Assembly (NCBI GenBank): GCA_031423255.1 | Contig: JANPFD010000022.1 | Span: 6,704 to 70,703, forward strand | Source: Myxococcales bacterium | GTDB lineage: Bacteria; Myxococcota_A; Polyangia; Fen-1088 | Reading direction: 5' to 3' | Length of the DNA: 64,000 bases | Shown: in pieces, positions 17,638-58,740 of the stretch | Layout: each line of letters begins with the position of its first letter | Position numbering within the stretch: the first letter of the stretch is position 1 | Position numbers and translations under genes: made by a program | The notes under the pieces: generated by a model | Told to the model about the DNA's origin: nothing | The model's database searches: none | Seen by the model: the letters and a program-made list of their open reading frames with translations, nothing else

Positions 17638-18668
17638 TGAACGCTCCGCGCGAGCAGCTCTTCGTAGGCCTCGACATGGGCGGGACCGACATCAAGGCCA
17701 CGGTCAGCAACGGCCTGGGCGAGATCCTGGTGAACGACTGCGAGAAGGTTCTCAGCCTGGCCGCCGAGGGGCCGCGCAAGACGGTCGAGCAGCTGGCCAT
17801 GGCGGCGGACAAGGTGCTGGCGGCCGCGGGCAGCAAATGGGAACACGTGGCGGGCATCGGGCTGGACACGCCCGGCCCGGCGTCCCTGGAGGGTGTGTTG
17901 ACCCGTTCCCCGAACCTGAAGCATCCGGACTGGGAGGGCTTCCCGATCCGCAAGGTGTTCGAGCAGCGCACCGGGCGCCCGACGGTCTACGCGAACGACG
18001 GCAACGCGGCTGCGTACTGGGAGTACTACCGCCTGTTCCGCGACGACCCCGAGAAGATCATGGCCGCGGCGATCCTGGGGACGGGCTTCGGCGGTGCTCT
18101 GGTCTGGGGCGGCGAGGTGCTGACCGGCTCGCGTGGCTTCGGCGCCGAGTTCGGCCACATCCGTCTCCCGACGCACGAGATCGCCAGGGACGGCGACGTG
18201 CCCATCTGCGGCTGCACCAAGGCCGGCTGTGCCGAGGCGTTCGTCAGCGTGGCGGCCCTGGACTACTTCCTTCGCAAGGCGCTCAAGCGGCCCGAGCACA
18301 AGAGCCACCCGTTGCAGAAGGTGGCTGACGCAGGTCGCGAGCGGGCGCTGAAGCTGCTGGGGCTCGCGCAAAAAGGAGACACGCTGGCGCAAGAGCTGTT
18401 CGACGCCCAGGCCGACGCGCTCGGCCTGCTGTTCGTGCAGATCGCCAACTGCTTCGACCCCGACGTCTACATCATCGGCGGCGGGCTGACCGACAGCTCG
18501 ACCGAGTTCCGCGAACGGTACATAGGCCGCGTGCGCGCCATCTTCAAGCGCGAGACGTTCCCCGCCGTGGCGAAAGACGCCTCGATCGAGTTCGCGGCCG
18601 ATCAGGACATGGCCGGCTGTCGAGGCGCGGCGTTGCTGGCCCGACAGGCTGCTCAGAAGTCGCGCTAG
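17638..18668 (+). CDS. ROK-family sugar kinase (glucokinase-like)
   Basis: GLDMGGTDIKA ATP-binding N-terminus. ROK zinc motif GHI...CGCTKAGCAE. Confidence 0.8.
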
Positions 18669-20017
18669 CCGCTTCTGAGGTGCCAGGCCTTGGGCTGCAA
18701 GAAGGCGCGGATGCCCCAGGCCGACAGGGTCGAGCCGATGCCGGAGTGCTTGCGGCCGGTCCAGGGTAGGCGCGGGCTGACGCGGTCGCAGCAGTTCCAG
18801 TACACGCTGCCAGCGTTCGCCTGCCGCAAGATGGTTTGCGCGCGGGCTTGGTCGGGCGTGTAGACGCCAGCCGTGAGGCCGTAGTCCGTGTCGTTCATCA
18901 GCGTGACCGCCTCGTCGTCACCGTCGACGACCTGGATGCCGATGATCGGGCCGAAGCTCTCCTCGCGCATCACGGCCATCTGGTGGGTCACGTCGGTGAG
19001 CACCGTCGGCGCGAAGTAGTAGCCACGGCGATCGATGCGCTTGCCGCCGTGGAGCAGCCGCGCGCCTTTTGCCACGGCGTCCTTCACCTGGGTTTCGAGC
19101 GCGGCCAGCTGATCCTTGCGGGCCAGCGGCCCGATGTACGTGTTCTCGTCGGTCGGCTCGCCGACGACGAAGGCGCGCACCACCTCGACGAACGCCTCGA
19201 TGAAAGCGGGGGCGATCGTGCGGTGGACGTAGATGCGCTCGACGGAGCAGCAGCTCTGTCCGGTGTTGTAGAACGCGCCGTCGGCCAGGCTCTCGGCGGC
19301 GGCGCGTGCGTCGGCGTCGTCGCAGACGTACGTCGGGTCCTTGCCGCCGAGCTCGAGCTGCACCTTCACCATGCGGCCGGCGACGGTCTCGGCGATCTTG
19401 CGGCCGGTGCCATAGCTGCCGGTGAAGAAGACGCCGTTCACGTTCTGCGCCAGCAGCGCGCGCCCGGCCTCGCCTGTGCCGACGACGGCGATGAACGTCT
19501 CTTTCGGGACGCCGGCTTCATGCAGCAACGCCTCGATCCGCAGGCCGGTCATGGCTGCGTGCTCGGACGGCTTGTAGAGGACCGTGTTGCCGGTCAGCAG
19601 CGCCGGCACGAAGACGTTCGAGCCGACGAAGTAGGGGTAGTTCCAGGCCGAGATGTTGGCGATCACGCCCAGCGGTTCGTGGGTGGTCTTCTCCTCGAGC
19701 TTCCCGTCGCGCAGCACGACGTCGTCGGCCATGACCTCGGCGGTTTTCTCGAGGAAATAGTCGATCCGTCCCGCCATGGCCGCGATCTCGTTGCCCGCCT
19801 GCTTGATCGGTTTGCCCATCTCGCGCGTCAGCGTCAGCGCCAGGTCCGCCTTGTGCGTGGCCAGCAGGTCCTTGAAGCGCCGGATGGCGGCCAGGCGATC
19901 GGCCAGCGGAGCGGGACGGGCCTGACGGGCGCGCTCGTACTTCGCCGCTATCGAACCGGCGTCGTCCTCGCGCAAGTCGGCGACCACCTCCTCGGTGGCG
20001 GGATTGACGACCTTCAT
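18665..20017 (-). CDS. NAD(P)-dependent aldehyde dehydrogenase (PuuC-like)
   Basis: ELGGKDP, catalytic GQSCCSVER, ~450 aa ALDH. Start ATG ~20017 overlaps the upstream stop. Confidence 0.9.
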   Translation of the reverse strand: MKVVNPATEEVVADLREDDAGSIAAKYERARQARPAPLADRLAAIRRFKDLLATHKADLALTLTREMGKPIKQAGNEIAAMAGRIDYFLEKTAEVMADDVVLRDGKLEEKTTHEPLGVIANISAWNYPYFVGSNVFVPALLTGNTVLYKPSEHAAMTGLRIEALLHEAGVPKETFIAVVGTGEAGRALLAQNVNGVFFTGSYGTGRKIAETVAGRMVKVQLELGGKDPTYVCDDADARAAAESLADGAFYNTGQSCCSVERIYVHRTIAPAFIEAFVEVVRAFVVGEPTDENTYIGPLARKDQLAALETQVKDAVAKGARLLHGGKRIDRRGYYFAPTVLTDVTHQMAVMREESFGPIIGIQVVDGDDEAVTLMNDTDYGLTAGVYTPDQARAQTILRQANAGSVYWNCCDRVSPRLPWTGRKHSGIGSTLSAWGIRAFLQPKAWHLRSG

Positions 20018-20761
20018 CGGCGCTTCTCCACCTCGGCGAGGAATGCGGTCAGCAGCACCTCGGGATCGAGGAACCCGGGTGCGCCCGGGCTCATGAACTC
20101 GGGGTGCCACTGCACGCCGTAGGCAAACGCGCCGCCGTCGTGGCGTACGGCTTCGACGACCCCGTCGGGAACGGACCGCGCCTCGACGACCAGCCCCTTG
20201 CCCAGCTTGTTGAGGCACTGGTGGTGAACGCTGTTCACGCGGCCCCCGGCGGCATACCACTGGCCCAGCATTGCGCCTGGTTCAAATGCCACCTCGTGCT
20301 CGTGCTGGTCGTAGATCTCCCAGTTGCGGTGCATGCGCTTTTCGGGATGGAGCGTCTCGACGTCCTGGTAGAGCGTGCCTCCGAATGCGACATTCAGCAC
20401 CTGCGCGCCGCGACAGACGCCGAGCACCGGCTTGTTGCGGGCCATCGCCAGGCGAATCAACTCCATCTCGTAGATGTCGCGCGCGGGGTCGCCTTCCCAC
20501 TCGGGGCGCAGCGGCTCTTCGCCGTAATGCCGCGGGGACATGTCGGCTCCGCCCTGGAGCACCAGCCCATCGACGCCTTCGAGGAGATCGGCGGCATCCA
20601 GTTTGCCCGCCGCGCGAGGTAGCAGCACGGGCACCGCGCCGCCGGTCATCAGCCAATGAAGCATCGATTCTTCCGCGAACAGCAGCGTCTTGCCCTTGAA
20701 CAGCGGCCGTTTGGGATCCGCGTGGAGAAAACAGGCCGACACCCCGATGCGCGGGCGGATC
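20014..20761 (-). CDS. Gamma-glutamyl-gamma-aminobutyrate hydrolase family protein (peptidase C26 / class-I glutamine amidotransferase-like; PuuD-like)
   Basis: GVCRGAQVLNVAFGG (Cys nucleophile) and VQWHPE. GTG start ~20761 overlaps the ADH stop. Confidence 0.85.
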
Positions 20762-21923
20762 ACAGCGCCTGCTCGAAGATCCTCTGGAAGTCCGCCTTGG
20801 TGACCGGCTTCGGGTTGTTCGGGTGGCAGGCGTCGCCGACGGCGATGGCGACCAGGCGGTCGAGGTGCTCGCGCTTCACGCCCACCTCGCCCAGCGTTTT
20901 CGGGATGCCGATGGCGACTTTCAGCTCTTCCAGCCAGCGCACGAAGTCGGGCGTCCCGACGATCGCCGCCAGGTCGGCGAACTTCTCGGGCACCGCCGAC
21001 GCGTTGAACGCCATGGCGTACGGGATCATGATGCCGTTGGCGAGCCCGTGGTGCAGGTCGCACACCGTCGAGAGCGCGTGGGCGCACGAGTGCGTCACCC
21101 CGAGCCCTTTTTGGAAGGCGACGCCCCCCATCAGGGCTGCATTCAGCATCAGCCCGCGTGCTTCGCGGTGTGCCTCGTCGGTGAGCAACTCCTTGTCGCC
21201 CCTGTCGATGCGGCGCGCGTAGTCGACGCACTTACCGAGGTTGCGGGCGACGAGCCGCAGCCCGGACAGGGCGATCCCCTCGCACATCGGATGGAAGTCC
21301 TTGGCCAGGTACGCCTCGACCAGGTGGGTCAGCGCGTCCATGCCCGTCCCCGCGGTCACCGACGCCGGCAGGGCCATCGTCAGGTTCGGATCCACGAACA
21401 CCCGCTGCGCCAGGAGCCGCGGCGAGAAGATGATCTTCTTCACGTGCGTCTCGTCATCCGAGACCACGGTGCTGCGCCCGACCTCGCTGCCCGTCCCGGC
21501 CGTCGTGGGGATCGAGACGTAGTACGGCAGCTCCTTGTCGATCGGCCGCGCGTCGGGCTTGCCGTCCTCGTAGTCGAATAGATCGCCCGGGTGATGGGCC
21601 ATGAGAGCGATCGCCTTGGCCACATCGATGGCCGCGCCGCCGCCCAGGGCGACGACGGCATCGGCGCCGTGGTCCTTGAAGACGGCGACCCCGGCGGTCA
21701 CCTGCGACTTCACCGGGTTGCCCCACACGCCGGAGAACATCGCCACCGACAGTCCCGCAGCCTCCAGGATCTTCACGACGTCCCGGGCCGGCGGCAGGAG
21801 CGCCAGCGCCTTGTCGGTCACCACCAGCGGCTTTGCGCGGCCGGCGTCCTTCAGCGCGCCGGGTAAAAGGCCGATCGCGCCGGCACCGTACTGGATCCTC
21901 GTCGGGAAACTGAATTGAATCAT
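20760..21923 (-). CDS. Iron-containing (group III) alcohol dehydrogenase
   Basis: MIQFSFPTRIQYG..., GGGAAIDVAKAIA and metal-binding His-rich C-terminal half. Confidence 0.9.
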   Translation of the reverse strand: MIQFSFPTRIQYGAGAIGLLPGALKDAGRAKPLVVTDKALALLPPARDVVKILEAAGLSVAMFSGVWGNPVKSQVTAGVAVFKDHGADAVVALGGGAAIDVAKAIALMAHHPGDLFDYEDGKPDARPIDKELPYYVSIPTTAGTGSEVGRSTVVSDDETHVKKIIFSPRLLAQRVFVDPNLTMALPASVTAGTGMDALTHLVEAYLAKDFHPMCEGIALSGLRLVARNLGKCVDYARRIDRGDKELLTDEAHREARGLMLNAALMGGVAFQKGLGVTHSCAHALSTVCDLHHGLANGIMIPYAMAFNASAVPEKFADLAAIVGTPDFVRWLEELKVAIGIPKTLGEVGVKREHLDRLVAIAVGDACHPNNPKPVTKADFQRIFEQAL

Positions 21924-23290
21924 ATGATCTCGAAGTAGCGGGCCATCTCCCAGTTCGTGACCGCCTTGCTGAACTGCCGCCACTCCCAGTGACGGCTGGC
22001 GACGAAGTGCTCGACGAACGCCTCGCCGAACAGCTCGCGCGCCACCTGCGACTGTTCGAGCCGCACCGTGGCCTCGTGCAGGTTGCGCGGCAAGATCGGC
22101 GCGCTGGTGTCGGCATAGCCGCTGCCCGCGACCGGACCGCGCGGCAGCTCCAGCTTCTTCTCGATGCCGTAGAGGCCGCTGGCCAGCGCCGCGGCCATCG
22201 CCAGGTAGGGGTTGGTGTCCGAACCGTTGACCCGCGTCTCGAGCCGCGTCGACTTGGCGCTGCCGGGGATCACCCGCATGGCGGTGGTGCGGTTGTCGAT
22301 GCCGTAGTTCGCCCGGGTCGGAGCCCAGGCGCCCTCGACGAGGCGTTTGTAGCTGTTCACCGTCGGAGCGAAGAACGGCAGGATCTCCGGCAGGCACAGC
22401 ATCTGCCCGGCGAGGTAGCTCTTGAAGGTCGCGCTCATCTTGTGGGGATCGCGCTCGTCGAAGAACAGGTTCTTGGCGCCGCTCCTGTCCCACAGGCTCT
22501 GGTGGATGTGGCCGCTGCAACCGGGCAGGTCGGCGCTCCACTTGGCCATGAAGGTGGGCAGGATGCCGAAGCGGTGGCCGATCTCCTTGGCGCCAGTCTT
22601 GAAAAGGACGGCGCGGTCGGCGGCCTCGACAGGATGGTCGTAAAGGATCGCCGCCTCCAGGACGCCCGGGCCCGTCTCGGTGTGCAGTCCCTCGATCGGG
22701 ACACCGAAGGCGAGCATCTCGTCCATGAGCGCGTTCAAGAAAGGGCGGTTCTGGTTCATCCGCACCACCGAGTACCCGAACATGCCGGGCGTCAGCGGAG
22801 CAGGCTTGGCGTAGCCCTTGTCGGCCAGGCTCTGCGAGGTCTCACGGAAGTTGAACCACTCGTACTCCAGCGAGCTCAGCACCGAGAATCCGGCCGCGTC
22901 GAGGCGCGCCACCACCTTCTTGAGCAGCTGCCGGGGGCAGATCTCGAGCGGCGCGCCGCCCGCCCAGAAGTCGCCCAGCAGGAACGGGACCTTGTCGTCC
23001 CAGGGGACCTCTCGATAGGTCGATGTGTCCAGGCGCACTTCGGCGTCGGGGTAGCCGGTGTGCCAGCCGGTGTAGCGGGCGTTGTCGTAAACGACGTCGG
23101 CCGAGTCCCAGCCGAACACCACGTTGCAGAACCCGAGCCCGCCGTCCAGGCCCGACAGGAACTTGTCCTTGTGGATGTACTTGCCGCGCAGGACACCGTC
23201 GATGTCGGTGACCGCCACCTTCACCTTGGCGGCGCCGGCCTTCTCGACCCGCTCGACGATCTCCTTGCCGGTGAGGGCGGCCTTGCGCAT
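21920..23290 (-). CDS. Glutamine synthetase-family gamma-glutamyl-amine ligase (PuuA / gamma-glutamylpolyamine synthetase-like, GS catalytic domain)
   Basis: GS-I-like catalytic region (...HTETGPGVLEAA..., NPYLAMAAALASGLYGI), ~456 aa. First gene of an overlapping four-gene operon. Confidence 0.85.
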   Translation of the reverse strand: MRKAALTGKEIVERVEKAGAAKVKVAVTDIDGVLRGKYIHKDKFLSGLDGGLGFCNVVFGWDSADVVYDNARYTGWHTGYPDAEVRLDTSTYREVPWDDKVPFLLGDFWAGGAPLEICPRQLLKKVVARLDAAGFSVLSSLEYEWFNFRETSQSLADKGYAKPAPLTPGMFGYSVVRMNQNRPFLNALMDEMLAFGVPIEGLHTETGPGVLEAAILYDHPVEAADRAVLFKTGAKEIGHRFGILPTFMAKWSADLPGCSGHIHQSLWDRSGAKNLFFDERDPHKMSATFKSYLAGQMLCLPEILPFFAPTVNSYKRLVEGAWAPTRANYGIDNRTTAMRVIPGSAKSTRLETRVNGSDTNPYLAMAAALASGLYGIEKKLELPRGPVAGSGYADTSAPILPRNLHEATVRLEQSQVARELFGEAFVEHFVASRHWEWRQFSKAVTNWEMARYFEII

Positions 23291-23334
23291 GCACGTCGAG
23301 TATCGGTCCACCCGACGAGGGGTGCAAGGCGGGG

Positions 23335-24822
23335 TCAGCGCAGGTTCAGGCGGGCGCGCGTCGCCCAGAAGTTCCCGGTGTCGGCGATCTCGCCCAGGCC
23401 CGGGGCGGCGCGGGTGTCGATTCCCAGCGCGTCGCCCAGCGTGACCCAGAGTGAATCGATCTTCTGGCCGGCGTACACCGTTCCGGGCAGGCCGCTGCGC
23501 CCGAACAGCTCGGGCGATCCGGCATGGCCGGAGGTGCCGCCCGAGACGCGCAGGTGGCGTCCCGGTGTGATGATGCCGCCGCCACGTCCGGCCACGACGA
23601 TCGGCAGATCATGCACGTCGTGGGTGGCTCCGTGAGACATGGAGCCGGTGTAGACGGCCATGCAATTGTCCAGCAACGTGCCGCCGCCTTCGCCCGGGAG
23701 CGCCTTCAGCTTGCCCACCACACGGGCGTAGCGCTGGGTGTTCCACTCCTCGATGCAGCGCAGAGCGAGGATGCGCTCCTCGGCGGTGGCGGGGCTGTTC
23801 GGCGCCTCGCCGTCGACGGTGCCCTGGCTGTAGTGCGAAAGACCGTTGTGGTATTCGTGCGACCCCAGCACGAACTTCAGCCGGTCGCGCCTGGCAGCGT
23901 CGAGTGGCGTGCCGTCGCCGAGCGTCGCCGGTGGGGTGATGAAGCCGTACTTCATGCGCACCGTCTCGATGTCCGACTGCCAGGTGACCAGGCGGGTGAG
24001 ATCGCACTGGAACGCCAGCACCACCAGGTCGCCGATGAGATCCATCTGCTTCTCGAGGCTGCTGCCCGCCGGATAGGCGAAGGCGGCCTCCTGGTTCTTG
24101 CCACAGGTCGACGGCGGCAAGGCCAGCTGGCGCTGCACCTCCGTCAGACTCTGGAGGTATTCCGCCAGGCGCGCCTGATCCTCGCGGCCAAGCCGGGTGT
24201 TCAGGGACTTCGCCTGCGGCAGCACGAAATCCACCAGACCCTTGCGGTGGCGGATGGCGCGCGCAGCGGCTTCCATCGCCGCCGGGTCGGAGGCGCCGAA
24301 CAGGTCCAGGTACATCGCGTGCGGATCGGGGTTCTGGGGAGTGACGATGTAGTTCGTCGTCGAGGTCCAGGACATGAACATCTTCGACGCCTGGCCGTTG
24401 AGCGTCCGCCGTGTGCTCAGCTCGAGGGACTTGCGCCGTAGGCCCAGCTTGCGCAGGCGCGAGGAGAGGAACTGATCGTACGAAGGGCGGGCGACGATCT
24501 TGTCTTGCGACGTCGGACCGCCAGTCAGCATCTCGGCCTGGGGAGAGTGCGCGTCCTGCCCGGATGCTCGGTCGTGGTTGTCGATGCCCGACAGCACCAG
24601 GAGGTCCGATTTGTACGGATCGAGCGAACGGAGCGTCGGCGCGAGCGAGAACGGCATCTCCGGCACCGACGAGACCATCGATCGGCGGTAAAAGCCGTTC
24701 GGCGTGTTGAAGATCAAGAGCCGCACCGGACGGGCCTGGGCGCGTGCCTCCATGACTTCGAGGAACGGCAGCGCCAGGGACAGGCCGCCGCCGCGGAGCA
24801 TCGTCCGGCGTGAGAGCTTCAT
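23335..24822 (-). CDS. DUF1552 family protein with twin-arginine (Tat) signal - module A partner
   Basis: MKLSRRTMLRGGGLSLALPFL Tat motif. Conserved FQCDLTRLVT and C-terminal HDVHDLPIVVAGRGGG shared with three paralogs in this window. ATG 24822 overlaps the upstream stop. Confidence 0.85.
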   Translation of the reverse strand: MKLSRRTMLRGGGLSLALPFLEVMEARAQARPVRLLIFNTPNGFYRRSMVSSVPEMPFSLAPTLRSLDPYKSDLLVLSGIDNHDRASGQDAHSPQAEMLTGGPTSQDKIVARPSYDQFLSSRLRKLGLRRKSLELSTRRTLNGQASKMFMSWTSTTNYIVTPQNPDPHAMYLDLFGASDPAAMEAAARAIRHRKGLVDFVLPQAKSLNTRLGREDQARLAEYLQSLTEVQRQLALPPSTCGKNQEAAFAYPAGSSLEKQMDLIGDLVVLAFQCDLTRLVTWQSDIETVRMKYGFITPPATLGDGTPLDAARRDRLKFVLGSHEYHNGLSHYSQGTVDGEAPNSPATAEERILALRCIEEWNTQRYARVVGKLKALPGEGGGTLLDNCMAVYTGSMSHGATHDVHDLPIVVAGRGGGIITPGRHLRVSGGTSGHAGSPELFGRSGLPGTVYAGQKIDSLWVTLGDALGIDTRAAPGLGEIADTGNFWATRARLNLR

Positions 24823-26822
24823 GGCGTCCCTCCCCGGCGGGAGCGGAAGCTGCGGCCCGTCACCACCCGCCGCACCAGTTCCTTGAACGGGACGCGGTTG
24901 GCATCGGCAGACACCTGGTGCACGCCGCAGGCCTCCTGACCCGGGACCTGACGCCCGAGCGCGTAGACCATCAGACGTCGGCTGGCGCAGTTTCCGAGCG
25001 CCTGCTTGCCGGCCAGCACCTTCGCCAGCTGGGTGTGGTCCCTGAACGTCTCGCCCGTCGGCAGGTAGCCGCTGGCGTCCACCGGATTGCGCTTTGGCCC
25101 CTCGACGGTGCGGTATTTGCCCTGCGGACCGAAGTGCTCGAGACCGAAGCCGATCGGCTCCATGTTGGCGTGGCAGGAGATGCAGGTGCCCTGAGCGTGC
25201 ATCAACATCTGTTCTTTCTTTGGCAGGTCGAGGTTCCGGACCTTGTCGATGAGGGATTCCACCTCGGGCGGCGGCGGCGGTGGCGCCGAGCAGAGCAGGT
25301 TGTCGAGCACGTAGTGGCCGCGGATGACGGGCGCGGTCTCGATGTCGGGCGAGGACAGGGTGAGGAAGGCGGCCTGGGTCAGGATGCCGCCGACGCGCGC
25401 CGTACCCGCCGTCGGGACCTTGGCGAAAGCGGGGTCGCCCGCCGGCAGGCCGTAGTGCGTCCGCAGGGCGGCATCGACGAAGGTGAAGTCGGCGTCGACG
25501 AGGCGTGCGACCGGAAGCTGTGGGTTCGACAGAAGCTCCTGCATGAACAGCTCTGTCTCCTTCGCCATGCTGGTCCGCAGCGCCGGTGCGACCGTGTCCT
25601 CGTTGTCCAGCTCGCCGAGCCGCAGCCACTCGCGCGCGAATCCGCGCAGAAGCGCGCTCCGGCGCGGGCTGGCGTAGAGCCGGTCGAATTGAGCGGTCAG
25701 CACCTGCGCGTTTTTCAGCTGGCCCATGCCTGCCAGCCGGAACAGCTCGTCGTCGGGCATCGAGCTCCAGAGGAAGTAAGAGAGGCGCGTCGCCAGTTCG
25801 TGGTCGCCGAGGGCGCGTACCCCGGTGGCACCCGCGGGATCCAGCTCCACCTGGTACAGGAAGCTCGGCGTCAGCAGCACCGACTGGAACACCAGCTTCA
25901 TCCGCTCCTCGAAGATGGTGCCGAGAACGGTCTTGTCGTACTGGCCGAGCATCTCGGTCACCTCGGTAGCCGTGGCCGGCCGGCGGTAGGCACGCGGCAG
26001 GAAGCGCTCGAGGATCTCCTGCGCGCAGGCGCGCTCGTTGCCGGCAATCGGGCGCGAGCAGGCCATGGTCCTGGCGTAGGCGGCGTTGGTGGCGGCGCCG
26101 GCGAAGAAGGTGTCGACCGCGCGGATGCTGCCGTCGATCAACCCCTTGGTCAGCGTGTCGTTGATGAGATTCGAGGCCTCGTCGACGCGGGTGAAAGAAT
26201 AGGCGGTGGTCTCCGCGGGCAGCGCGGCGGCAGAGTTGAAGGTGTCGGGCAGGCCGAGCAGATCGCGTACGGTGTTGGCGTATTCGGTGCGCGTCAGGCG
26301 GCGCAGACCGTTCCAGGCGACGTCCGGCTCGCCGGGCAAGGAGTAGATCCACTCGCGGACGATGCGCAGCTCGTCGTTGGTCATGCGCGTGCCCGACGGC
26401 GGCATCTCCAGCGCCATGATCCGCTCGTCCATCCGGACCAGGCGGTCCATCTGTGCGCGCGCCGTGGCCTCATTTGCCAGGAGCTTGTCCATGGCGAACT
26501 TCCCGGACGGCGCCACACCCGAATGGCAGGTCACGCAATTGCGCACGAGGATCGGTTTGACCTGCTGCTCGAAGCTGATGGAGCTGTTGTCGACGCACAG
26601 CTTGGCCGGGACGAGCGTCGGGTTGCTCACCGGGTCGTTCGGGGGCGGAGGCATCCCGGGGCCCGGAGGGTTGAGGGGATTCAGCGGGTTCAGAGGATCG
26701 ACGGGCGGCGTCCCGTCGCTGTCGCCCGGGTCGCCTCCGATGTCGCCCACGCATGACGCAAGGATCGCTGCCAACCCCAAACAACAAAGATGGCGCACGG
26801 GCACGAGGCTCTCGTAAGGCAA
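24819..26822 (-). CDS. DUF1592/DUF1588/DUF1587/DUF1585-family protein with N-terminal CxxCH (Planctomycete cytochrome-c-like, PSCyt) - module A
   Basis: Lipoprotein-like N-terminus. CVTCHSG near the N-terminus, C-terminal CISCHANMEPIGFGLEHFG. Family hallmark ...TRTEYANTVRDLLG... and ...AYRRPATATEV.... Confidence 0.85.
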   Translation of the reverse strand: MPYESLVPVRHLCCLGLAAILASCVGDIGGDPGDSDGTPPVDPLNPLNPLNPPGPGMPPPPNDPVSNPTLVPAKLCVDNSSISFEQQVKPILVRNCVTCHSGVAPSGKFAMDKLLANEATARAQMDRLVRMDERIMALEMPPSGTRMTNDELRIVREWIYSLPGEPDVAWNGLRRLTRTEYANTVRDLLGLPDTFNSAAALPAETTAYSFTRVDEASNLINDTLTKGLIDGSIRAVDTFFAGAATNAAYARTMACSRPIAGNERACAQEILERFLPRAYRRPATATEVTEMLGQYDKTVLGTIFEERMKLVFQSVLLTPSFLYQVELDPAGATGVRALGDHELATRLSYFLWSSMPDDELFRLAGMGQLKNAQVLTAQFDRLYASPRRSALLRGFAREWLRLGELDNEDTVAPALRTSMAKETELFMQELLSNPQLPVARLVDADFTFVDAALRTHYGLPAGDPAFAKVPTAGTARVGGILTQAAFLTLSSPDIETAPVIRGHYVLDNLLCSAPPPPPPEVESLIDKVRNLDLPKKEQMLMHAQGTCISCHANMEPIGFGLEHFGPQGKYRTVEGPKRNPVDASGYLPTGETFRDHTQLAKVLAGKQALGNCASRRLMVYALGRQVPGQEACGVHQVSADANRVPFKELVRRVVTGRSFRSRRGGTP

Positions 26823-26926
26823 TCGGCATGCCCGGGAAGAGCCTGGAGATGTCGCGGATCTACCAGTGACGCCGGGATGATCGCGCCGGGCGCATGCGAT
26901 CTGGTGGATCGCACCCCGTCACCTTC

Positions 26927-27978
26927 TCAGGGAGGGGGCAGAAGCACCCGGAGGTCGGGCGGCATGTCCTTGCCGTCGCGGAGATCGCCCCAGAACACCA
27001 TCCGCCCGTCCATGGTGACTGCCACCGCCGACATGTAGTTCATGAGGACGAACCGCGCCCGCAGCCCGGCTGGCGGGCGCGCGCTGCCTCCGGCGCCCCA
27101 GCAGGTGATGCCATCATCCATCCTGACCGCGCAGGTGGCCGTGTTTCCCGTGGCGATCTCGCGTCCCTTGAGGCCCGCGGGAACGTTGATGGCGCTGCTG
27201 GCCGCGCCCCAGCAGACGACGCTGTCGTCGAGTGTGATCGCGCAAGCGTGGGAGTTGGTGCCGTCGTAGAGGCCACCGACGGCGATCCGCTTCGCCTTCA
27301 GATCGGCGGGTGGGGCCGGCGCCCCGGGGCCCCAGCAGACGACGCGGTCGTCGCTGGCGATCGCGCAGTCGAAGACGAGAGAGGCGATGCGTTTGGCCTG
27401 CAGACCGGCGGGCGGCGTGTGGCCTGCCTCGCCCCAGCAGGTGACACTCCCGGCGCGGCCCAGCGCGCAGGCGTGGACGTTCCCCGAGGTCAGCGCCACC
27501 GGATCGACCACCCGGGGAGGCCGGATCGTACCCATGAAGGCGCCCCAGCAGCGGATAGCCTGATCGGCTGCCGGTGGCTCCTTCAGGATGGAACAGGCGC
27601 CCGTGTGGTGCCCCGTGAGCGCCACTGCGTTCAAGTTCGCCGGGGCCTGATGCCGGGCCCCGCCGTTCGCGACCCCCGCTACCCGTCCGAAGCAAGTGAC
27701 CAGGGACGCGGTGTCCGCGACGCAGACCGCGAATGGACCCAGGCCGATGCTCTGGAACTGAGTGGTCGACGTGCTCGGCGGCGACTCGGGGCGATTGCCG
27801 TCGACGGGAGCCGGCGGGCGGTCGGCGCCGTCACGCCCTGCGCCCGCGCGATCCTGACCGGCGTCGTCGACAGGATCGTCCGCCGAGGCATCCGGCTCGG
27901 CGGGAGACGGGGGATCGGTCGCCCCGTTCGTGGCGCTGCAGCCCGCGATCACCAGGAGAGCCAGCAGCCCGCGCACGC
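26927..27978 (-). CDS. Lipoprotein with RCC1-like (regulator of chromosome condensation) beta-propeller repeats
   Basis: GTG start 27978, 12 bp after the kinase stop. LLALLVIAGCS lipobox. Repeated ...HACA/TCA...DG.V.CWG... units (VTCWG, VVCWG, ITCWG). Confidence 0.6.
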
Positions 27979-46163: not shown

Positions 46164-47885
46164 ATGACAGTACGTACCTTCTGTCTCGGAGTTCTGGCGC
46201 TGGCCGCTGGCTGCACCGGCGTGGTCGGCGGCGGTGGCGGAGGTGATGAACCAGGGGGCGATGTAACGAATCCTCCTCCCGGGGGTGGTGGCAGCGGCGG
46301 CAGCGGTCCCGATGGCGTCAAGCCGCCCGACGTCGTCAACCTGTGCAAGGGCGTGACCACGCAGGCTGCGCCCGCTCCGGTTCGACGCTTGACCCGCCGC
46401 GAGTACAACAACGCCATTCGCGACCTCCTGAACGACACCGCGGTCCCGACCCCGGCCCGCGACTTCGCGCTGGATGACCACCTCGGCCTGTTCGAGAACA
46501 ACGCCGGCTCTCCCGCGACGGTCCTCACCACCACCCAGTACGCCGAGACGGCCGAGACGCTGGCGCGCAACGCCGTGACGAGGAAGCTCGCCATGATCGT
46601 GCCGTGCGCGAACGCCGCCGGCGACGACACCTGCGCCCGCGACTTCATCAAGAACTTCGGCAAGCGCACTTACCGCAGGCCATTGACCGACGTCGAGGTG
46701 AACCGCCTGTTCAACGTGTACAACGTCGCCAAGGGCACCGGCGGCTATGCGAACGGTGTGCGCCTGGCGCTGCAGACGATGCTGCAATCCCCCGTCTTCC
46801 TGAACCACATCGAGAAGGGCGTCGCGCCTGCGGTGGGCGCCACGGTGGCGGCGCTCACCCCCTACGAGATGGCCTCGCGGCTGTCGTTCTTCCTGTGGAG
46901 CACGATCCCGGATACGGCGCTGATGACCGCGGCGGACGCCAACCAGCTCGGCACCCCGGCCGAGATCGAGGCTCAGGTCACGCGCATGCTCGCCTCCGAC
47001 AAGGCCAGGTCGGGCGTCTACACCTTCTTCTCGCAGTGGCTGGAACTGGACAAGCTGGGAGCCGCTGACCGCAATGCCACGATGTTCCCGATGTGGACCA
47101 ACGCCCGGAAGTTCGTCCGCGCCGAGACCGACATGTTCATCAACGAGACCATCTGGAAGGGCGACGGCAAGCTGACGACGATGCTGCTGGCCCCGTACTC
47201 GTACGTGAACAGCACGCTGGCGGCGCTCTATGGCGTCCAGGGCGTCACCGGCGATCCGCTGGTCAAGACCGATCTCAACCCGATGCAGCGGGCCGGTCTG
47301 TTGACGCAGTCGTCGGTCCTCGCGACCACCGCCGCCTTCGACAGCACCTCGCCGGTGCATCGCGGCCTCCTCGTTCGCGAGCGCTTCCTGTGTCAAGTGA
47401 CGCCGTCGCCGCCGCCGGACGTCGACGTGAACATCCCGCGCGCCGATCCGAAGATGACCACGCGCGAGCGGTACGCCAGGCACCAGAGCGAGCCGTACTG
47501 CGCGGGCTGCCACAGGCTGATGGACTCGATCGGCCTCGGCTTCGAGAGCTACGATGCGATCGGCAAGTTCCGGACGATCGAAAATGGGAAGACCATCGAC
47601 GCCACCGGTGAGGTCGTGGCCTCTCGCGACGTGGACGGCCCGTTCAACGGCGCCGTCGAGCTGGCGAACAAGGTGGCGAAGAGCAGCGAGGTCCGCGAGT
47701 GCATGACCCAGATCTGGCTGTCCTACGCCACGGCGAATCTCACCTCGGACCTCGCCTGCACGGTGGCGCGTCTCACCACGGACTTCAACAACGCAGGCTC
47801 CGACTTCCGCAAGCTGATCCTGGCCATCGCGAAGAGTGACGCCTTTCGCAGCCGGCGAGCCCTCTCGAAGGAGGTGTGCCAATGA
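46164..47885 (+). CDS. DUF1592/DUF1588/DUF1587-family lipoprotein (short form, no N-terminal CxxCH) - module B
   Basis: LALAAGC lipobox, Gly-rich linker. RRLTRREYNNAIRDLL, KRTYRRPLTDVEV. C-terminal CAGCHRLMDSIGLGFESYD. Confidence 0.8.
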   Translation: MTVRTFCLGVLALAAGCTGVVGGGGGGDEPGGDVTNPPPGGGGSGGSGPDGVKPPDVVNLCKGVTTQAAPAPVRRLTRREYNNAIRDLLNDTAVPTPARDFALDDHLGLFENNAGSPATVLTTTQYAETAETLARNAVTRKLAMIVPCANAAGDDTCARDFIKNFGKRTYRRPLTDVEVNRLFNVYNVAKGTGGYANGVRLALQTMLQSPVFLNHIEKGVAPAVGATVAALTPYEMASRLSFFLWSTIPDTALMTAADANQLGTPAEIEAQVTRMLASDKARSGVYTFFSQWLELDKLGAADRNATMFPMWTNARKFVRAETDMFINETIWKGDGKLTTMLLAPYSYVNSTLAALYGVQGVTGDPLVKTDLNPMQRAGLLTQSSVLATTAAFDSTSPVHRGLLVRERFLCQVTPSPPPDVDVNIPRADPKMTTRERYARHQSEPYCAGCHRLMDSIGLGFESYDAIGKFRTIENGKTIDATGEVVASRDVDGPFNGAVELANKVAKSSEVRECMTQIWLSYATANLTSDLACTVARLTTDFNNAGSDFRKLILAIAKSDAFRSRRALSKEVCQ

Positions 47886-49156
47886 AAATGGTCCGTCGCT
47901 ATTCGCCCCGACGTGAGTTTCTCCAGGGCGTGGGCCTCGGCGCCTTCGCGTTGCCGTTCCTGCGCGCGACCGAGGGGCGCGCCCAGACGCAGCCCAAGCG
48001 CCTGGTGGTGTTCTCCAGCCCGAACGGCACGGTGATGAACGACTTCTTCCCGGTGACGGGGAACGTGTACGGACGCATCCTCAAGCCTCTGGAGCCGCTC
48101 AAGAGCAAGATCGCCGTCCTGCGCGGCATCAACATGGAGACGGCCTACAAGACGCCGATCCCCAAGGACCACAACCCGGATTACCGGAACATGCTCACGG
48201 CGCGCCAGCCGACGGGTGATGGCACCAATTTCCGGGTCGAGGGCATCTCCATCGATCAGCACATCGCCAACGCCATCGGCACGAGGACCAAGTTCGCCTC
48301 GCAGCAACTGGGGGTGCTGGCCGTCTCGTATCAGATCTCCAGCCGTGGGGTCGGCCAGCCGATCAGCCCCGAGAACAGCCCGTACAAGGCGTTCACCCGC
48401 CTGTTCGCGGGAGTGACCGCATCGCCCACCGAGCTGGATCGCCTCCGCCGCGAGAAGAAGAGCGTCATCGACGCGCTGATTGGCGAGACGACCGACCTGC
48501 GCTGCGCGCTCGGCCGCGAAGAGAAGCCGAAGTTCGACCTCCACCTCGAGTCGCTGCGCGAGCTGGAGCGTAGCCTGGACATCCCCGTGGGTGCCGGCTG
48601 CCGCGCACCGGATCAGGGCGCGCCCGTCCCCGTCGACACCGCCAATGCCCAGCAGATCATGAAGCTGCAGATTGACATCCTGGCAGCGGCCATCGCCTGT
48701 GATCTCACCCGGGTCTTGACGCTCCAGCACGGTCAGGGCCGCCTGCCATACAGCTGGCTCGGCATCAATCAGAGCCATCACGGCATCTCGCACGGCAGCG
48801 AGGGGGTCACCGCGACCCAGGCGCAGCGCACCGAGTGGCTGGTCCTGATCGAGACCTGGATAGCGTCGCAGTTCTTCTATCTGCTGCAGAAACTGGACGC
48901 CATTCCCGATCCGCGCGGCACCGCGCTCGACAACACCGCGGTGCTATGGGCCCACGAGCAGTCGAACGGCGGCAGCCACCAGCGCAAGGACATGCCGTAC
49001 GTGCTGGCCGGTGGCCTCTTCCAGGGCGGACGCGCCGTCAACTTCGGCGGCAAGGCCCACAACGGCCTGCTCATCAGCCTGGCCAACGCCGTCGGCGTCC
49101 CCACGGCGGAGTTCGGCGACCCGGACTTCTCCCGGGGGCCACTGGCCGGGCTCTAA
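47876..49156 (+). CDS. DUF1552 family Tat-signal protein - module B partner
   Basis: SPRREFLQGVGLGAFALPFL Tat motif. IACDLTRVLTLQ. Start overlaps the upstream gene by 10 bp. Confidence 0.85.
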   Translation: MPMKMVRRYSPRREFLQGVGLGAFALPFLRATEGRAQTQPKRLVVFSSPNGTVMNDFFPVTGNVYGRILKPLEPLKSKIAVLRGINMETAYKTPIPKDHNPDYRNMLTARQPTGDGTNFRVEGISIDQHIANAIGTRTKFASQQLGVLAVSYQISSRGVGQPISPENSPYKAFTRLFAGVTASPTELDRLRREKKSVIDALIGETTDLRCALGREEKPKFDLHLESLRELERSLDIPVGAGCRAPDQGAPVPVDTANAQQIMKLQIDILAAAIACDLTRVLTLQHGQGRLPYSWLGINQSHHGISHGSEGVTATQAQRTEWLVLIETWIASQFFYLLQKLDAIPDPRGTALDNTAVLWAHEQSNGGSHQRKDMPYVLAGGLFQGGRAVNFGGKAHNGLLISLANAVGVPTAEFGDPDFSRGPLAGL

Positions 49157-49158
49157 CC

Positions 49159-50454
49159 TTAGACCAGCCCCGCCAGCCGGCCGGTGCTGTCGCCGAACGT
49201 ATCCACCGGCACACCGATCCGGTCCAGCAGGGAGACGTACAGGTTGTTCAGCGGGAGCTTCTCGTACCTGAGATGGCGGCCCGGCTTGACGGTGCCGCCG
49301 CCGCGCCCGGCCAGGACCACGGGCAGGTCGTCGTGGTTGTGGCGGTCGCCGTCGCCGATGCCGCTGCCGTAGACGATCATCGAGTTGTCCAGCAGCGTGC
49401 CGTCCCCCTCGCCGATCGACTTCAACTTCTCCAGCAGGTAGGCCAGTTGCGTGGCGTGGAAGCGGTTGATGCGCGAGATCTTCTGCAGCTTCTCGGGGTT
49501 GCGGCCGTGGTGGGACAGCTCGTGGTGCCCCTCGGGGATCTCCAGGTGCGGGTAGCTCTTGTTGCTGCCGGCGTTCGCTACCAGGAAGGTGGCGATGCGG
49601 GTGATGTCGCTCTGGAACGCCACCACCAGCAGATCGCACATCAGGCGGATGTGTTCCTGGTTGTCGCTCGGGATCTCCTCCGGCCGCCCGAAGGCAGGCG
49701 CGTCGACGGGCGGCATCTGCCCGAAGCGCGCGATTCGCTGCTCGATCTCGCGCACCGCCGTCAGGTACTCGTCCATCTTGCGGTTGTCGGTCTTGCCCAG
49801 CCGAGGCTTGAGGGACTCGAGATCCCGGGCCACGAAGTCGAGGATGCTGCGCTTCTGGCGATCGCGCTTGGGGTCCACACCCATGCCGAACAGGCGGTCG
49901 AACACCAGCGACGGGTCCACCTCCTTCGCCAGCGGCATCGTGTCTGACTTCCATGCCAGGTTCGACGAGTAGGCGCAGGAGTAGCCCGAGTCGCAGTTCC
50001 CGGACTGCGCGCCGCGATCGACGCCCAGCTCCAGAGACGGCAGGCGCGTCAGATGGCCCAGCTTCTGCGCCGCCACCTGGTCCGCCGAGATCCCGTTCTT
50101 GATGTTCGCGCCGTTGGTCTTGTGGGGGTGCGCGCCGGTCAGGAACGCGCCCAGAGCCCGCGCGTGGTCGCCCGGTCCGTCGCCGAGCGCGAAGGCATTC
50201 CGTTGCTCGAGGCCCGTGAGGACGGTGATCTCGTCCCGGACACTGCGCAGCGGCTCCAGGATCGACGGCAACGTGAAGTCCGTCCCCGCCTTGCTGGGCG
50301 TCCAGTCCGGCATGTGCACGCCATTCGGGACGTAGAGGACGGCGAAACGCAGCGGCGCCCTGGGACGCTTCGGCGCTGCCATCGCCTCGAGCCACGGCAA
50401 CGAGACCCCGATTCCCACCCCACGCAGCAATGTCCGTCGGGATAGCGACTTCAT
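49159..50454 (-). CDS. DUF1552 family Tat-signal protein - module C partner
   Basis: MKSLSRRTLLRGVGIGVSLPWL. FQSDITRIATFL. HDDLPVVLAGRGGG. ATG 50454 overlaps the upstream stop. The N-terminal 171 codons of the track ORF are rejected. Confidence 0.85.
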   Translation of the reverse strand: MKSLSRRTLLRGVGIGVSLPWLEAMAAPKRPRAPLRFAVLYVPNGVHMPDWTPSKAGTDFTLPSILEPLRSVRDEITVLTGLEQRNAFALGDGPGDHARALGAFLTGAHPHKTNGANIKNGISADQVAAQKLGHLTRLPSLELGVDRGAQSGNCDSGYSCAYSSNLAWKSDTMPLAKEVDPSLVFDRLFGMGVDPKRDRQKRSILDFVARDLESLKPRLGKTDNRKMDEYLTAVREIEQRIARFGQMPPVDAPAFGRPEEIPSDNQEHIRLMCDLLVVAFQSDITRIATFLVANAGSNKSYPHLEIPEGHHELSHHGRNPEKLQKISRINRFHATQLAYLLEKLKSIGEGDGTLLDNSMIVYGSGIGDGDRHNHDDLPVVLAGRGGGTVKPGRHLRYEKLPLNNLYVSLLDRIGVPVDTFGDSTGRLAGLV

Positions 50455-57916: not shown

Positions 57917-58693
57917 TCATCGGGCGCAGTAGCCTCCATCGACCAGCAGCGACGCTCCGGTGATATAGGACGCCTCGTCGGATGCCAGGAACAGGGCCGC
58001 AGCGGCGATTTCCTCCGGCTCGCCTATGCGACCGAGCAGGATCTTCGGGCATTCCTCGGCGAGGAAGGCGTCATGATCGATGCCGTTGTCGGCGATCACC
58101 TTGCGCAGCGCCGGCGTCCACACTGCGCCGGGGCACAAGCAATTGGCGCGGATCCGGTGGGGCGCGAGGTCCATCGCCATGTTGCGGGTCATCTGGACCA
58201 CCGCCGCCTTGGTCGCGCTGTACGTCGTGAGCCGGGGTTGCGCGACGAAGGCCGAGATGGAGCCCAGGTTGACGATGGCCCCCCCGCCTCGCCGCTTCAT
58301 CTGGCGAACCGCGTGCTTGCTGGTCAAGGCCGTGCCCGTCACGTTGACCACCAGCGAGCGATGCCAGTCGTCCGCCGTCGCTTCCAGATCCTTCATGACG
58401 AACACGGCGGCGCAGTTGACCAGCACATCGATGCCGCCATATCGTGCGGCCGCCGCGTTACAGGCGCGCTCCACCGAGGTCTCGTCGGCGACATCGATGC
58501 TGGCGAAGGACGCCTCGCCGCCGGCGGCAGCGATCGCATTGCACACGCGCTCGCCGTCTGCGTCGTTGCGGTCTGTCACCAGCACCCGCGCCCCTTCACG
58601 GGCGAATCGTCGGGCTATGGACTCGCCGATCCCTGAAGCCGCGCCGGTGACGAGAGCGATCTTGCCTTCGAGGCGTCGTGTGAGTTCTTGCAT
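57917..58693 (-). CDS. Short-chain dehydrogenase/reductase (SDR) family oxidoreductase
   Basis: TGAASGIG cofactor motif, NCAAV, catalytic YSATKAAV (YxxxK). Confidence 0.9.
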   Translation of the reverse strand: MQELTRRLEGKIALVTGAASGIGESIARRFAREGARVLVTDRNDADGERVCNAIAAAGGEASFASIDVADETSVERACNAAAARYGGIDVLVNCAAVFVMKDLEATADDWHRSLVVNVTGTALTSKHAVRQMKRRGGGAIVNLGSISAFVAQPRLTTYSATKAAVVQMTRNMAMDLAPHRIRANCLCPGAVWTPALRKVIADNGIDHDAFLAEECPKILLGRIGEPEEIAAAALFLASDEASYITGASLLVDGGYCAR

Positions 58694-58694
58694 C

Positions 58695-58710
58695 CCGGAA
58701 GGTACTTTAC
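58695..58710. promoter_or_regulatory. Perfect 16-bp palindrome CTTTACACGTGTAAAG in divergent SDR / DUF1592-module-D intergenic region; candidate LacI-family operator
   Basis: Read directly. Left half CTTTACAC is the exact reverse complement of GTGTAAAG. It sits 0-50 bp from both start codons, with the LacI gene adjacent. Confidence 0.4.
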
Positions 58711-58740
58711 ACGTGTAAAGCCACCGAGTATAGTGGCTCG

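Follow-up and report, generated by a model that had tools for sequence, protein, structure and literature searches.

A four-gene operon in a Myxococcales bacterium encodes a real, conserved, and probably functional gamma-glutamyl pathway for an amino alcohol. It lies at positions 18665-23290 of a 64,000-nucleotide stretch of DNA, here called the window (GenBank assembly GCA_031423255.1, contig JANPFD010000022.1, positions 6,704 to 70,703 of the forward strand). The operon encodes a glutamine synthetase (GS)-like ligase, an iron-containing alcohol dehydrogenase (Fe-ADH), a Peptidase C26 hydrolase, and an aldehyde dehydrogenase (ALDH). That the enzymes process a primary amino alcohol by way of a gamma-glutamyl carrier is proposed with high confidence. 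Ethanolamine as the specific substrate is favored with moderate confidence, and we infer both this substrate and the order of the steps.

The four open reading frames (ORFs) are all on the minus strand in the order ligase, ADH, hydrolase, and ALDH. The ligase gene (21920-23290, 456 amino acids) and the Fe-ADH gene (20760-21923, 387 amino acids) begin with ATG, the hydrolase gene (20014-20763, 249 amino acids) with GTG, and the ALDH gene (18665-20017, 450 amino acids) again with ATG. The three junctions read ATGA, GTGA, and ATGA, with a 4-bp start/stop overlap at each. The GTG start of the hydrolase is backed by the N-terminus IRPRIGVSAC, which aligns with PuuD and other C26 hydrolases. The GC content at third codon positions is 0.83-0.93 in the four ORFs, and with a window GC content of about 68% this makes them look like real genes. 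An earlier reading of the DNA made without database searches, the sequence-only reading, had described four head-to-tail genes with 4-bp overlaps, and the ORF coordinates, junction letters, and Pfam matches agree with that description, which gave no strand. The genes would form one transcription unit in which the overlaps are translationally coupled.

The ligase belongs to the Pfam family Gln-synt_C (2e-93). Aligned to E. coli GlnA, it retains all the metal, ATP, phosphate, and glutamate ligands (E142, E144, E205, E212, H261, H263, R316, R334, R339, E351, and R353). In contrast, the ammonium site is replaced, with W322, F171, and P256 in place of E327, Y179, and N264 of GlnA. The residue W322 aligns with tryptophan, phenylalanine, or tyrosine in PuuA, IpuC, a GlnA4-like protein, the protein of PDB entry 5dm3, and the glutamate-methylamine ligase GMAS. 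Conserved ligands and an aromatic or hydrophobic residue at the E327 flap position are the features of the GS-like gamma-glutamyl-amine ligase superfamily, and both are present. Since the ligands are kept and the ammonium site is replaced, the ligase should form gamma-glutamyl phosphate yet take an organic amine, not ammonia. Its residues thus identify it as a GS-like gamma-glutamyl-amine ligase and not as a true glutamine synthetase.

The view that the first gene is a genuine ammonium-assimilating GS, with the other three genes as unrelated neighbors, is extremely improbable. The Gln-synt_C domain and the public annotation of homologues as 'glutamine synthetase' are in line with it. However, the three ammonium-site positions carry other residues, the score on the GlnA equivalog (TIGR00653) is 198 bits against a cutoff of 429, the pairwise match to E. 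coli GlnA spans only 191 residues, GlnA is a distant outgroup in the ligase tree, and the four genes overlap and keep their synteny in several phyla. The type III GS model gln_synth_III gives 222 bits against 470. The tree, the residues, and the NCBIfam scores agree that the ligase does not cluster with bona fide glutamine synthetases; such clustering is what the sequence-only reading had named as counting against its proposal.

The other three proteins also keep the catalytic residues of their classes. The ADH matches the Pfam families Fe-ADH (PF00465, 7e-45) and ADH_Fe_C (PF25137, 9e-40), and it has the GGGA94 motif and the metal ligands D196, H200, H278, and H292 of group III iron-containing ADHs. 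Its best NCBIfam match is 4-hydroxybutyrate dehydrogenase, at 298 bits against a cutoff of 500. The hydrolase matches Peptidase_C26 (PF07722, 2e-59, 201.7 bits against a cutoff of 20.5), and its triad C117, H220, and E222 aligns with the Cys-His-Glu triad of PuuD. Its identity is 36% both to E. coli PuuD and to the C26 hydrolase of a Streptomyces GlnA4-type cluster, its score on the PuuD equivalog is 109 bits against 266, and its PDB matches are 3fij, 7d4r, and PuuD (6vtv). The NAD(P)-dependent ALDH matches Aldedh (4e-131) and has the catalytic residues N126, E222, and C256 in place. Its best NCBIfam match is a succinic semialdehyde dehydrogenase model (363 bits against 521), and it is 33% identical to PuuC. 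None of the four proteins attains any NCBIfam equivalog cutoff. The enzyme classes given by the sequence-only reading (GS-like ligase, Fe-ADH, class-I amidotransferase-like hydrolase, and ALDH) are the ones that the Pfam matches and intact catalytic residues indicate.

The ADH and the ALDH each share 41% identity with their counterparts in an ethanolamine cluster linked to a TRAP transporter (locus L086, on a plasmid of Rhodobacteraceae SC52); for the ADH, the match covers the full length. Orthology with the Chromohalobacter (Csal) and Phaeobacter enzymes was considered as evidence and dropped, because 41% is no closer than the match to a generic 4-hydroxybutyrate dehydrogenase or succinic semialdehyde dehydrogenase.

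A ligase, an alcohol-oxidizing dehydrogenase, an ALDH, and a gamma-glutamyl amidohydrolase are thus co-located in overlapping genes with their catalytic residues kept. With ethanolamine as substrate, the ligase would use ATP to couple the amine to the gamma-carboxyl group of glutamate, giving gamma-glutamylethanolamide. The Fe-ADH would then oxidize the free hydroxyl to gamma-glutamyl aminoacetaldehyde amide, the ALDH would convert this aldehyde to gamma-glutamylglycine, and the C26 hydrolase would split the product into glycine and regenerated glutamate. The net reaction would be ethanolamine + ATP + 2 NAD(P)+ to glycine + ADP + Pi + 2 NAD(P)H. Such a route would need no B12-dependent ammonia-lyase and no microcompartment, and it would release no free acetaldehyde. 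Following the rationale of the published pathway and general chemistry, glutamylation would mask the amine, so that a reactive amino-aldehyde would never be free. The sequence-only reading had proposed a gamma-glutamylation operon in which ADH and then ALDH act on a gamma-glutamylated amino alcohol before the hydrolase releases the product. The four enzyme classes, the intact catalytic residues, and a ligase that is not a GS support this proposal.

More than 8000 homologues of the ligase were found, and the nearest, at 70-81% identity, come from metagenome-assembled genomes (MAGs) of Polyangia/Myxococcales. Orthologues in other phyla are 58-75% identical to the window ligase, and an uncharacterized proteobacterial sister group is 47-51% identical. 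The reference ligases were drawn from annotated plasmids, E. coli K-12, and PDB alignments. Their identities to the window ligase are 39% for IpuC, 37.5% for a Streptomyces GlnA4-type protein, about 37% for the TRAP-linked ligase of L086, 35% for PDB entries 5dm3 and 11zs, and 29% for PuuA. In a neighbor-joining tree with 100 bootstraps, the window ligase lies inside a 27-member clade with 100% support, and this clade joins the sister group at 100% support. IpuC and PuuA branch outside the clade, and the methylamine ligase and GlnA lie far out. The GlnA4-like protein, 5dm3 (which we take to be Csal_0679), and the TRAP-linked ligase form another clade, 44-70% identical internally and 35-38% identical to the window ligase. 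The node that joins it to the window clade has a bootstrap of only 28%. Within it, 5dm3 and the L086 ligase are 70% identical, in support of the identification of 5dm3 as Csal_0679. The top solved-structure match of the window ligase is PDB 11zs (273 bits, 35% identity), named 'Glutamine synthetase, catalytic domain'. This protein clusters with the ethanolamine-ligase clade and is 55-56% identical to 5dm3 and the L086 ligase.

The labels PuuA-, PuuC-, and PuuD-type that the sequence-only reading gave to three of the proteins stand as a functional analogy. As a statement of kinship they do not stand, because the identities to E. coli PuuA, PuuC, and PuuD are 29%, 33%, and 36%, and the scores on the three NCBIfam models fall well short of their cutoffs. 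The ligase is in a separate clade from PuuA, reaches 190 of the 650 bits required by the gamma-glutamylputrescine synthetase model GGputSyn (NF045547), and has no oxidase partner in the window. A Puu/Pau-like gamma-glutamylation pathway for polyamines (putrescine) is accordingly very improbable, even though the ligase, ALDH, and C26 hydrolase are also the classes of PuuA, PuuC, and PuuD, and Pot-type ABC transporters and an aminotransferase are found at some loci of the sister clade. The operon has no PuuB oxidase or aminotransferase for the terminal amine and has an alcohol dehydrogenase in that place, and no polyamine transporter was found at window-clade loci. The ligase is not an IpuC either, as IpuC is only 39% identical and falls outside the clade, and no P450 system occurs in the window or at orthologous loci.

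The cassette is conserved well beyond the Myxococcota. When one genome of each GTDB species was scanned for orthologues, 80 loci were found whose ligases are 57-77% identical to that of the window. The carriers are Myxococcota, Bdellovibrionota/Bacteriovoracaceae, Burkholderiales, Bacteroidota (Chitinophaga, Pedobacter, Olivibacter, and Kriegella), Acidobacteria, and others. Neighboring genes were counted by tblastn with the four window proteins, using a length filter that undercounts short hydrolase matches in Bacteroidota. Most loci that reach far enough have the order ligase-ADH-hydrolase-ALDH on the same strand. ADH and ALDH are both present in 32 of the 55 loci with at least 4.6 kb downstream; 25 of these 32 pass a strict filter for all three downstream genes, and several more have a shorter hydrolase match. 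Because the four-gene order recurs in at least 25 other species-level genomes of several phyla, it is no chance arrangement. The identities of ligase, ADH, hydrolase, and ALDH drop in parallel, from 75/71/62/70% in a Polyangia genome to 58/45/41/56% in Pedobacter, which fits inheritance or transfer of the four genes as a unit. The flanking genes are not conserved, and the four genes are thus regarded as a functional module.

A few loci depart from this arrangement. At L012:9913-12383, L015:9365-11853, and L021, the ADH gene is directly followed by the ALDH gene, and the C26 hydrolase is missing locally. The cassette is also conspicuous in predatory lineages, namely Polyangia/Myxococcota, Bacteriovoracaceae, Halobacteriovoraceae, and Bdellovibrionales. 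It can be speculated that the phosphatidylethanolamine of prey is an obvious source of ethanolamine for such carriers.

The clue to the substrate comes from the genes next to the orthologous ligases. When neighboring ORFs were clustered, the commonest extra gene was an APC permease directly upstream of the ligase, at 33 loci. Counted by tblastn, the permease adjoins the ligase in 28 of the 69 orthologous loci for which 1.5 kb or more of upstream sequence is available. On the NCBIfam equivalog model for ethanolamine permease (TIGR00908), which has a cutoff of 381.75 bits, two representatives reach 453 and 443 bits. The permease gene frequently overlaps the ligase start or lies within 45 nucleotides of it, and the permease-linked loci belong to Bacteroidota, Bdellovibrionota, and one proteobacterial MAG. 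EutB and EutC were not found in the window or in any of the 90 fetched loci, so the ethanolamine permease there is paired with the GS-like ligase and does not serve an ammonia-lyase. It is this link between the permease and orthologous ligases that suggests ethanolamine as the substrate. Across the 27-member ligase clade, 120 of the 456 positions are invariant, including the pocket residues F171, P256, C258, and W322. As these four residues are the same in the permease-linked members and in the window ligase, the specificity may reasonably be transferred from the former to the latter, on indirect grounds.

Twelve Bacteroidota loci (L020, L022, L026, L031, L032, L041, L042, L047, L050, L052, L058, and L062) have only the permease and ligase, and none of the other three cassette genes follows. 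At five of these loci, an upstream gene encodes a divergent and distantly related ALDH (about 27% identity). In these genomes, either other loci supply the remaining enzymes, or the ligase has a stand-alone role, for example in detoxification or in the storage of gamma-glutamylethanolamide.

Several observations weigh against ethanolamine. The ligase falls outside the characterized ethanolamine-ligase clade (GlnA4/Csal_0679/MED193_10046), at 35-38% identity, and is similarly far from IpuC (39%). Its pocket differs from that of the ethanolamine-ligase clade, with F171 where the latter has glutamate, glutamine, or valine, and W322 where it has phenylalanine. There is no ethanolamine permease at any Myxococcota orthologous locus, and no transporter or regulator adjoins the operon in the window. 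Burkholderiales cassettes follow the genes of a 2-aminoethylphosphonate (AEP)-type ABC transporter and PhnW, or another APC permease. The ADH and ALDH are below every equivalog cutoff, which makes their substrates unpredictable from sequence. No biochemical or genetic data on any member of the ligase clade were found in the searched literature. The rest of the 64-kb window was searched for eut genes, for an ethanolamine permease, and for paralogues of the four genes, and none was found.

The main rival keeps the mechanism and changes the substrate. The amino alcohol would be L-alaninol, 3-aminopropanol, 4-aminobutanol, or serinol, or the ligase would have a broad specificity and the pathway would yield the corresponding amino acid. 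This is judged unlikely, with a chance that is small enough to doubt and large enough to take seriously. The ligase is as near to IpuC as to the ethanolamine ligases, and it has 13 of the 32 clade-signature residues in common with IpuC and none of the 32 with the ethanolamine-ligase clade. The lack of an ethanolamine permease at the window and Myxococcota loci and the other transporters of the Burkholderiales also favor a different amino alcohol. Against this, the sole substrate-specific neighbor that recurs across phyla is the TIGR00908 permease, and no Ipu-type P450 monooxygenase is present in the window or at orthologous loci, unlike at the Ipu locus L087. Ethanolamine is, moreover, by far the commonest free amino alcohol.

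At six loci (L013, L014, L016, L017, L048, and L070), a different APC permease is near the ligase. It belongs to the TIGR00907 subfamily and scores 188 bits, below the cutoff. Five of these loci are from Betaproteobacteria/Pseudomonadota and one (L048) is from a Myxococcales MAG. Some have a short-chain dehydrogenase/reductase (SDR) gene between permease and ligase, and a D-amino-acid dehydrogenase-like gene is near the ligase in L017.

The AEP-type neighborhood is found at seven Burkholderiales loci (L071:3960-13399, L079, L029, L049, L054, L069, and L076), where the cassette comes directly after PhnT2/PhnU2 and PhnW. The ABC transporter proteins PhnT2 and PhnU2 are above their equivalog cutoffs, and the AEP-pyruvate transaminase PhnW scores 567 bits against 296. 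An HAD-IB phosphatase gene follows the cassette in at least two of these loci (L071 and L079). PhnX, PhnY, and PhnA were not seen near the Burkholderiales cassettes. PhnW is also near a sister-clade ligase on a plasmid of Rhizobium leguminosarum (L083:1-43). The Burkholderiales genes may together salvage 2-aminoethyl-phosph(on)ate head groups as one module, in which phosphoethanolamine would be turned into ethanolamine. No link between gamma-glutamylation and AEP or PhnW was found in the searched literature.

These neighbors raise the further possibility that the operon itself has another role, either the detoxification or salvage of 2-aminoethyl head groups (phosphonate or phosphoethanolamine) or the biosynthesis of a gamma-glutamyl compound. 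The Phn genes upstream of the cassette, the phosphatase downstream of it, and the PhnW gene of the Rhizobium plasmid are in favor of this role, which is nevertheless improbable. Phosphonate genes are lacking in the window and in most other lineages, and the presence of a hydrolase that removes the glutamyl group again speaks for a catabolic carrier role. A feed from phosphoethanolamine to ethanolamine would in any case merge with the ethanolamine pathway and not compete with it.

The operon probably has its own promoter of the sigma-70 type, with a very short or absent 5' leader, as the conservation of a short element suggests. An alignment of the sequences that precede the ligase gene in Myxococcota orthologues shows the shared consensus TTGC(A/G)C-N17-GATACT. 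In the window, the element reads TTGCAC-N17-GATACT (23299-23327, minus strand) and ends 8 nucleotides before the ligase ATG. The pattern TTGCRC-N17-GATACT has one match in the 64-kb window, against 0.01 expected. Of the 90 fetched loci, only the Myxococcota loci L001/L006, L002, and L003 contain it, in each case only at the matching site ahead of the ligase gene. It ends 8-13 nucleotides before the ligase start codon, and there is no obvious Shine-Dalgarno sequence. A generic sigma-70 promoter scan of positions 18000-27200 found no promoter and did not report the TTGCAC-N17-GATACT element. The upstream DUF1552 gene ends 44 nucleotides before the ligase ATG.

An intrinsic-terminator scan of the same region gave a single terminator-like match, which is inside the ligase gene and on the wrong strand. 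At the downstream end, the stop codon of the ALDH gene overlaps that of a convergent ROK-family kinase gene on the shared palindrome CTAG (18665-18668). This CTAG is at the center of an 8-bp inverted repeat, CTCAGAAG / CTTCTGAG, at 18652-18679. The hairpin is weak, with a fold z of -1.5 to -1.65 that is not significant, and the repeat is a weak candidate for a bidirectional terminator.

The neighbors and remaining genes of the window are functionally unrelated to the operon. Downstream are the ROK kinase, a mannose-1-phosphate guanylyltransferase, and a phosphomannomutase. Upstream are a DUF1552/DUF1592 pair, an RCC1-repeat protein, a Ser/Thr kinase, and a sigma-54 activator with an FHA domain. 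The two-gene DUF1592/DUF1552 module is typical of Planctomycetes and Myxococcota. The window contains four pairs of DUF1592-family and DUF1552 (HXXSHH) genes within 64 kb, a paralogous expansion of this module, at 23335-26750 (minus strand), 46221-49156 (plus strand), 49159-52667 (minus strand), and about 58684-61808 (plus strand). For the fourth pair, the Pfam scan covered only the DUF1552 gene (60426-61808). The DUF1592-family members have PSD/PSCyt domains, and some have a cytochrome c motif.

Released from phosphatidylethanolamine, ethanolamine is a carbon and nitrogen source of major importance. Its textbook catabolism uses the B12-dependent EutBC, mostly inside a microcompartment. To our knowledge, only a handful of papers, on Streptomyces, Chromohalobacter, and Phaeobacter, cover the gamma-glutamyl ethanolamine route. 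If the ethanolamine assignment is true, this route is far wider than has been reported, reaching Myxococcota, Bdellovibrionota, Burkholderiales, Bacteroidota, and Acidobacteria. More than once, moreover, it would have been put together from parts that are not orthologous: an Fe-ADH or an SDR for the alcohol step, a C26 or an N-formylglutamate-amidohydrolase-family enzyme as hydrolase, and at least two ligase lineages. Hundreds of genes annotated as 'glutamine synthetase' would be named more aptly, and ethanolamine use and B12 dependence would be predicted better from genomes, with no concept changed. The main value is in the annotation and in showing the spread of a B12-independent route in environmental bacteria.

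A broader proposal is more tentative and is put forward as possible, with more doubt than confidence. The ligase clade may represent a third and independent line of amino-alcohol gamma-glutamylases, and the cassette a widespread ethanolamine-to-glycine route free of B12 and microcompartments; alternatively, the substrate may be an amino alcohol new to gamma-glutamylation. If this proposal holds, soil and freshwater predators (Myxococcota and Bdellovibrionota) and Bacteroidota may consume phosphatidylethanolamine head groups. The Burkholderiales cassette, fused to 2-aminoethyl-phosph(on)ate uptake, PhnW, and an HAD phosphatase, may then be part of a general system of lipid-head-group salvage.

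Among the known systems, the cluster SCO1610-1615 of S. coelicolor contains GlnA4 (SCO1613), a demonstrated gamma-glutamylethanolamide synthetase (PMC6529630; review PMC9397018). The neighboring SDR dehydrogenase, ALDH, and amidotransferase are proposed to give glycine and glutamate (PMC6529630). An operon of Phaeobacter sp. MED193 (MED193_10026-10056) is induced on phosphatidylethanolamine and encodes a TRAP transporter whose binding protein binds ethanolamine with a Kd of about 8 uM (PMC10132767). It also encodes an 'ethanolamine gamma-glutamylase', two dehydrogenases, and a gamma-glutamylglycine amidohydrolase, and it is stated to be closely related to the pathway demonstrated in Chromohalobacter salexigens and A. 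tumefaciens (PMC10132767). The likeness to gamma-glutamyl amino-alcohol pathways noted by the sequence-only reading is therefore well placed, as the same set of components has been described for ethanolamine catabolism in Chromohalobacter and Phaeobacter (PMC10132767).

Chromohalobacter/Phaeobacter type (the Csal_0678-type TRAP cluster): Like the window, this type clusters a GS-like ligase, Fe-ADH, ALDH, and terminal amidohydrolase, and the proposed chemistry is the same. However, its ligase is only 35-37% identical and is in the other clade, its hydrolase is of the N-formylglutamate-amidohydrolase family and not C26, and its gene order differs. Its TRAP transporter and RpiR regulator have no counterpart in the window. 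The annotated equivalent, locus L086, comprises an RpiR regulator, an N-formylglutamate-amidohydrolase-family hydrolase, TRAP genes, a GS-like ligase, an ALDH, and an iron-containing ADH.

Streptomyces GlnA4 type: This cluster resembles the window in its GS-like ligase, ALDH, and C26-type hydrolase (36% identical), and, like many orthologues of the window ligase, its ligase has an APC permease next to it. In contrast, it has an SDR and not an Fe-ADH for the alcohol step, and its ligase (37.5% identical) is in the other clade. It also has the GntR/FCD-type regulator EpuRI, which the window lacks. The S. viridifaciens plasmid locus L084, of this type, has an FCD regulator, an APC permease, a GS-like ligase, a C26 hydrolase, an ALDH, and an SDR.

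Puu and Ipu pathways: The E. coli Puu pathway has the carrier logic in common with the window (glutamylate, oxidize the far end, hydrolyze), as well as the ligase, ALDH, and C26 classes. It differs in the flavin oxidase PuuB, whose target is a second amine and whose place is taken in the window by an ADH for an alcohol, and in the low identities given above. The Ipu pathway on the Paenarthrobacter aurescens TC1 plasmids (L087) has a GS-like ligase (39%), C26-type amidotransferases, an ALDH, and a dehydrogenase, as does the window. Its P450, ferredoxin, and reductase, which hydroxylate the glutamylated alkylamine, have no counterpart in the window, and its dehydrogenase is an SDR.

Sister clade: The nearest relative of the window clade is the group at 47-51% identity, for example on Legionella lytica pLlyPCM2298_1 and B. 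vietnamiensis G4 pBVIE01. The Legionella lytica plasmid locus has the same four components (GS, ALDH, Fe-ADH, and a GATase-like gene), whereas the gene order of the sister clade differs. In other members, the partner of the ligase is a GMC oxidoreductase, or else an aminotransferase together with a Pot-type ABC transporter. The substrates of the sister clade are probably heterogeneous. Compared with all these systems, the window cassette combines the Fe-ADH of the Chromohalobacter/Phaeobacter type and the C26 hydrolase of the Streptomyces type around a third ligase lineage. The pathway type is already known, and what is new here is a different, uncharacterized ligase lineage with mixed accessory enzymes.

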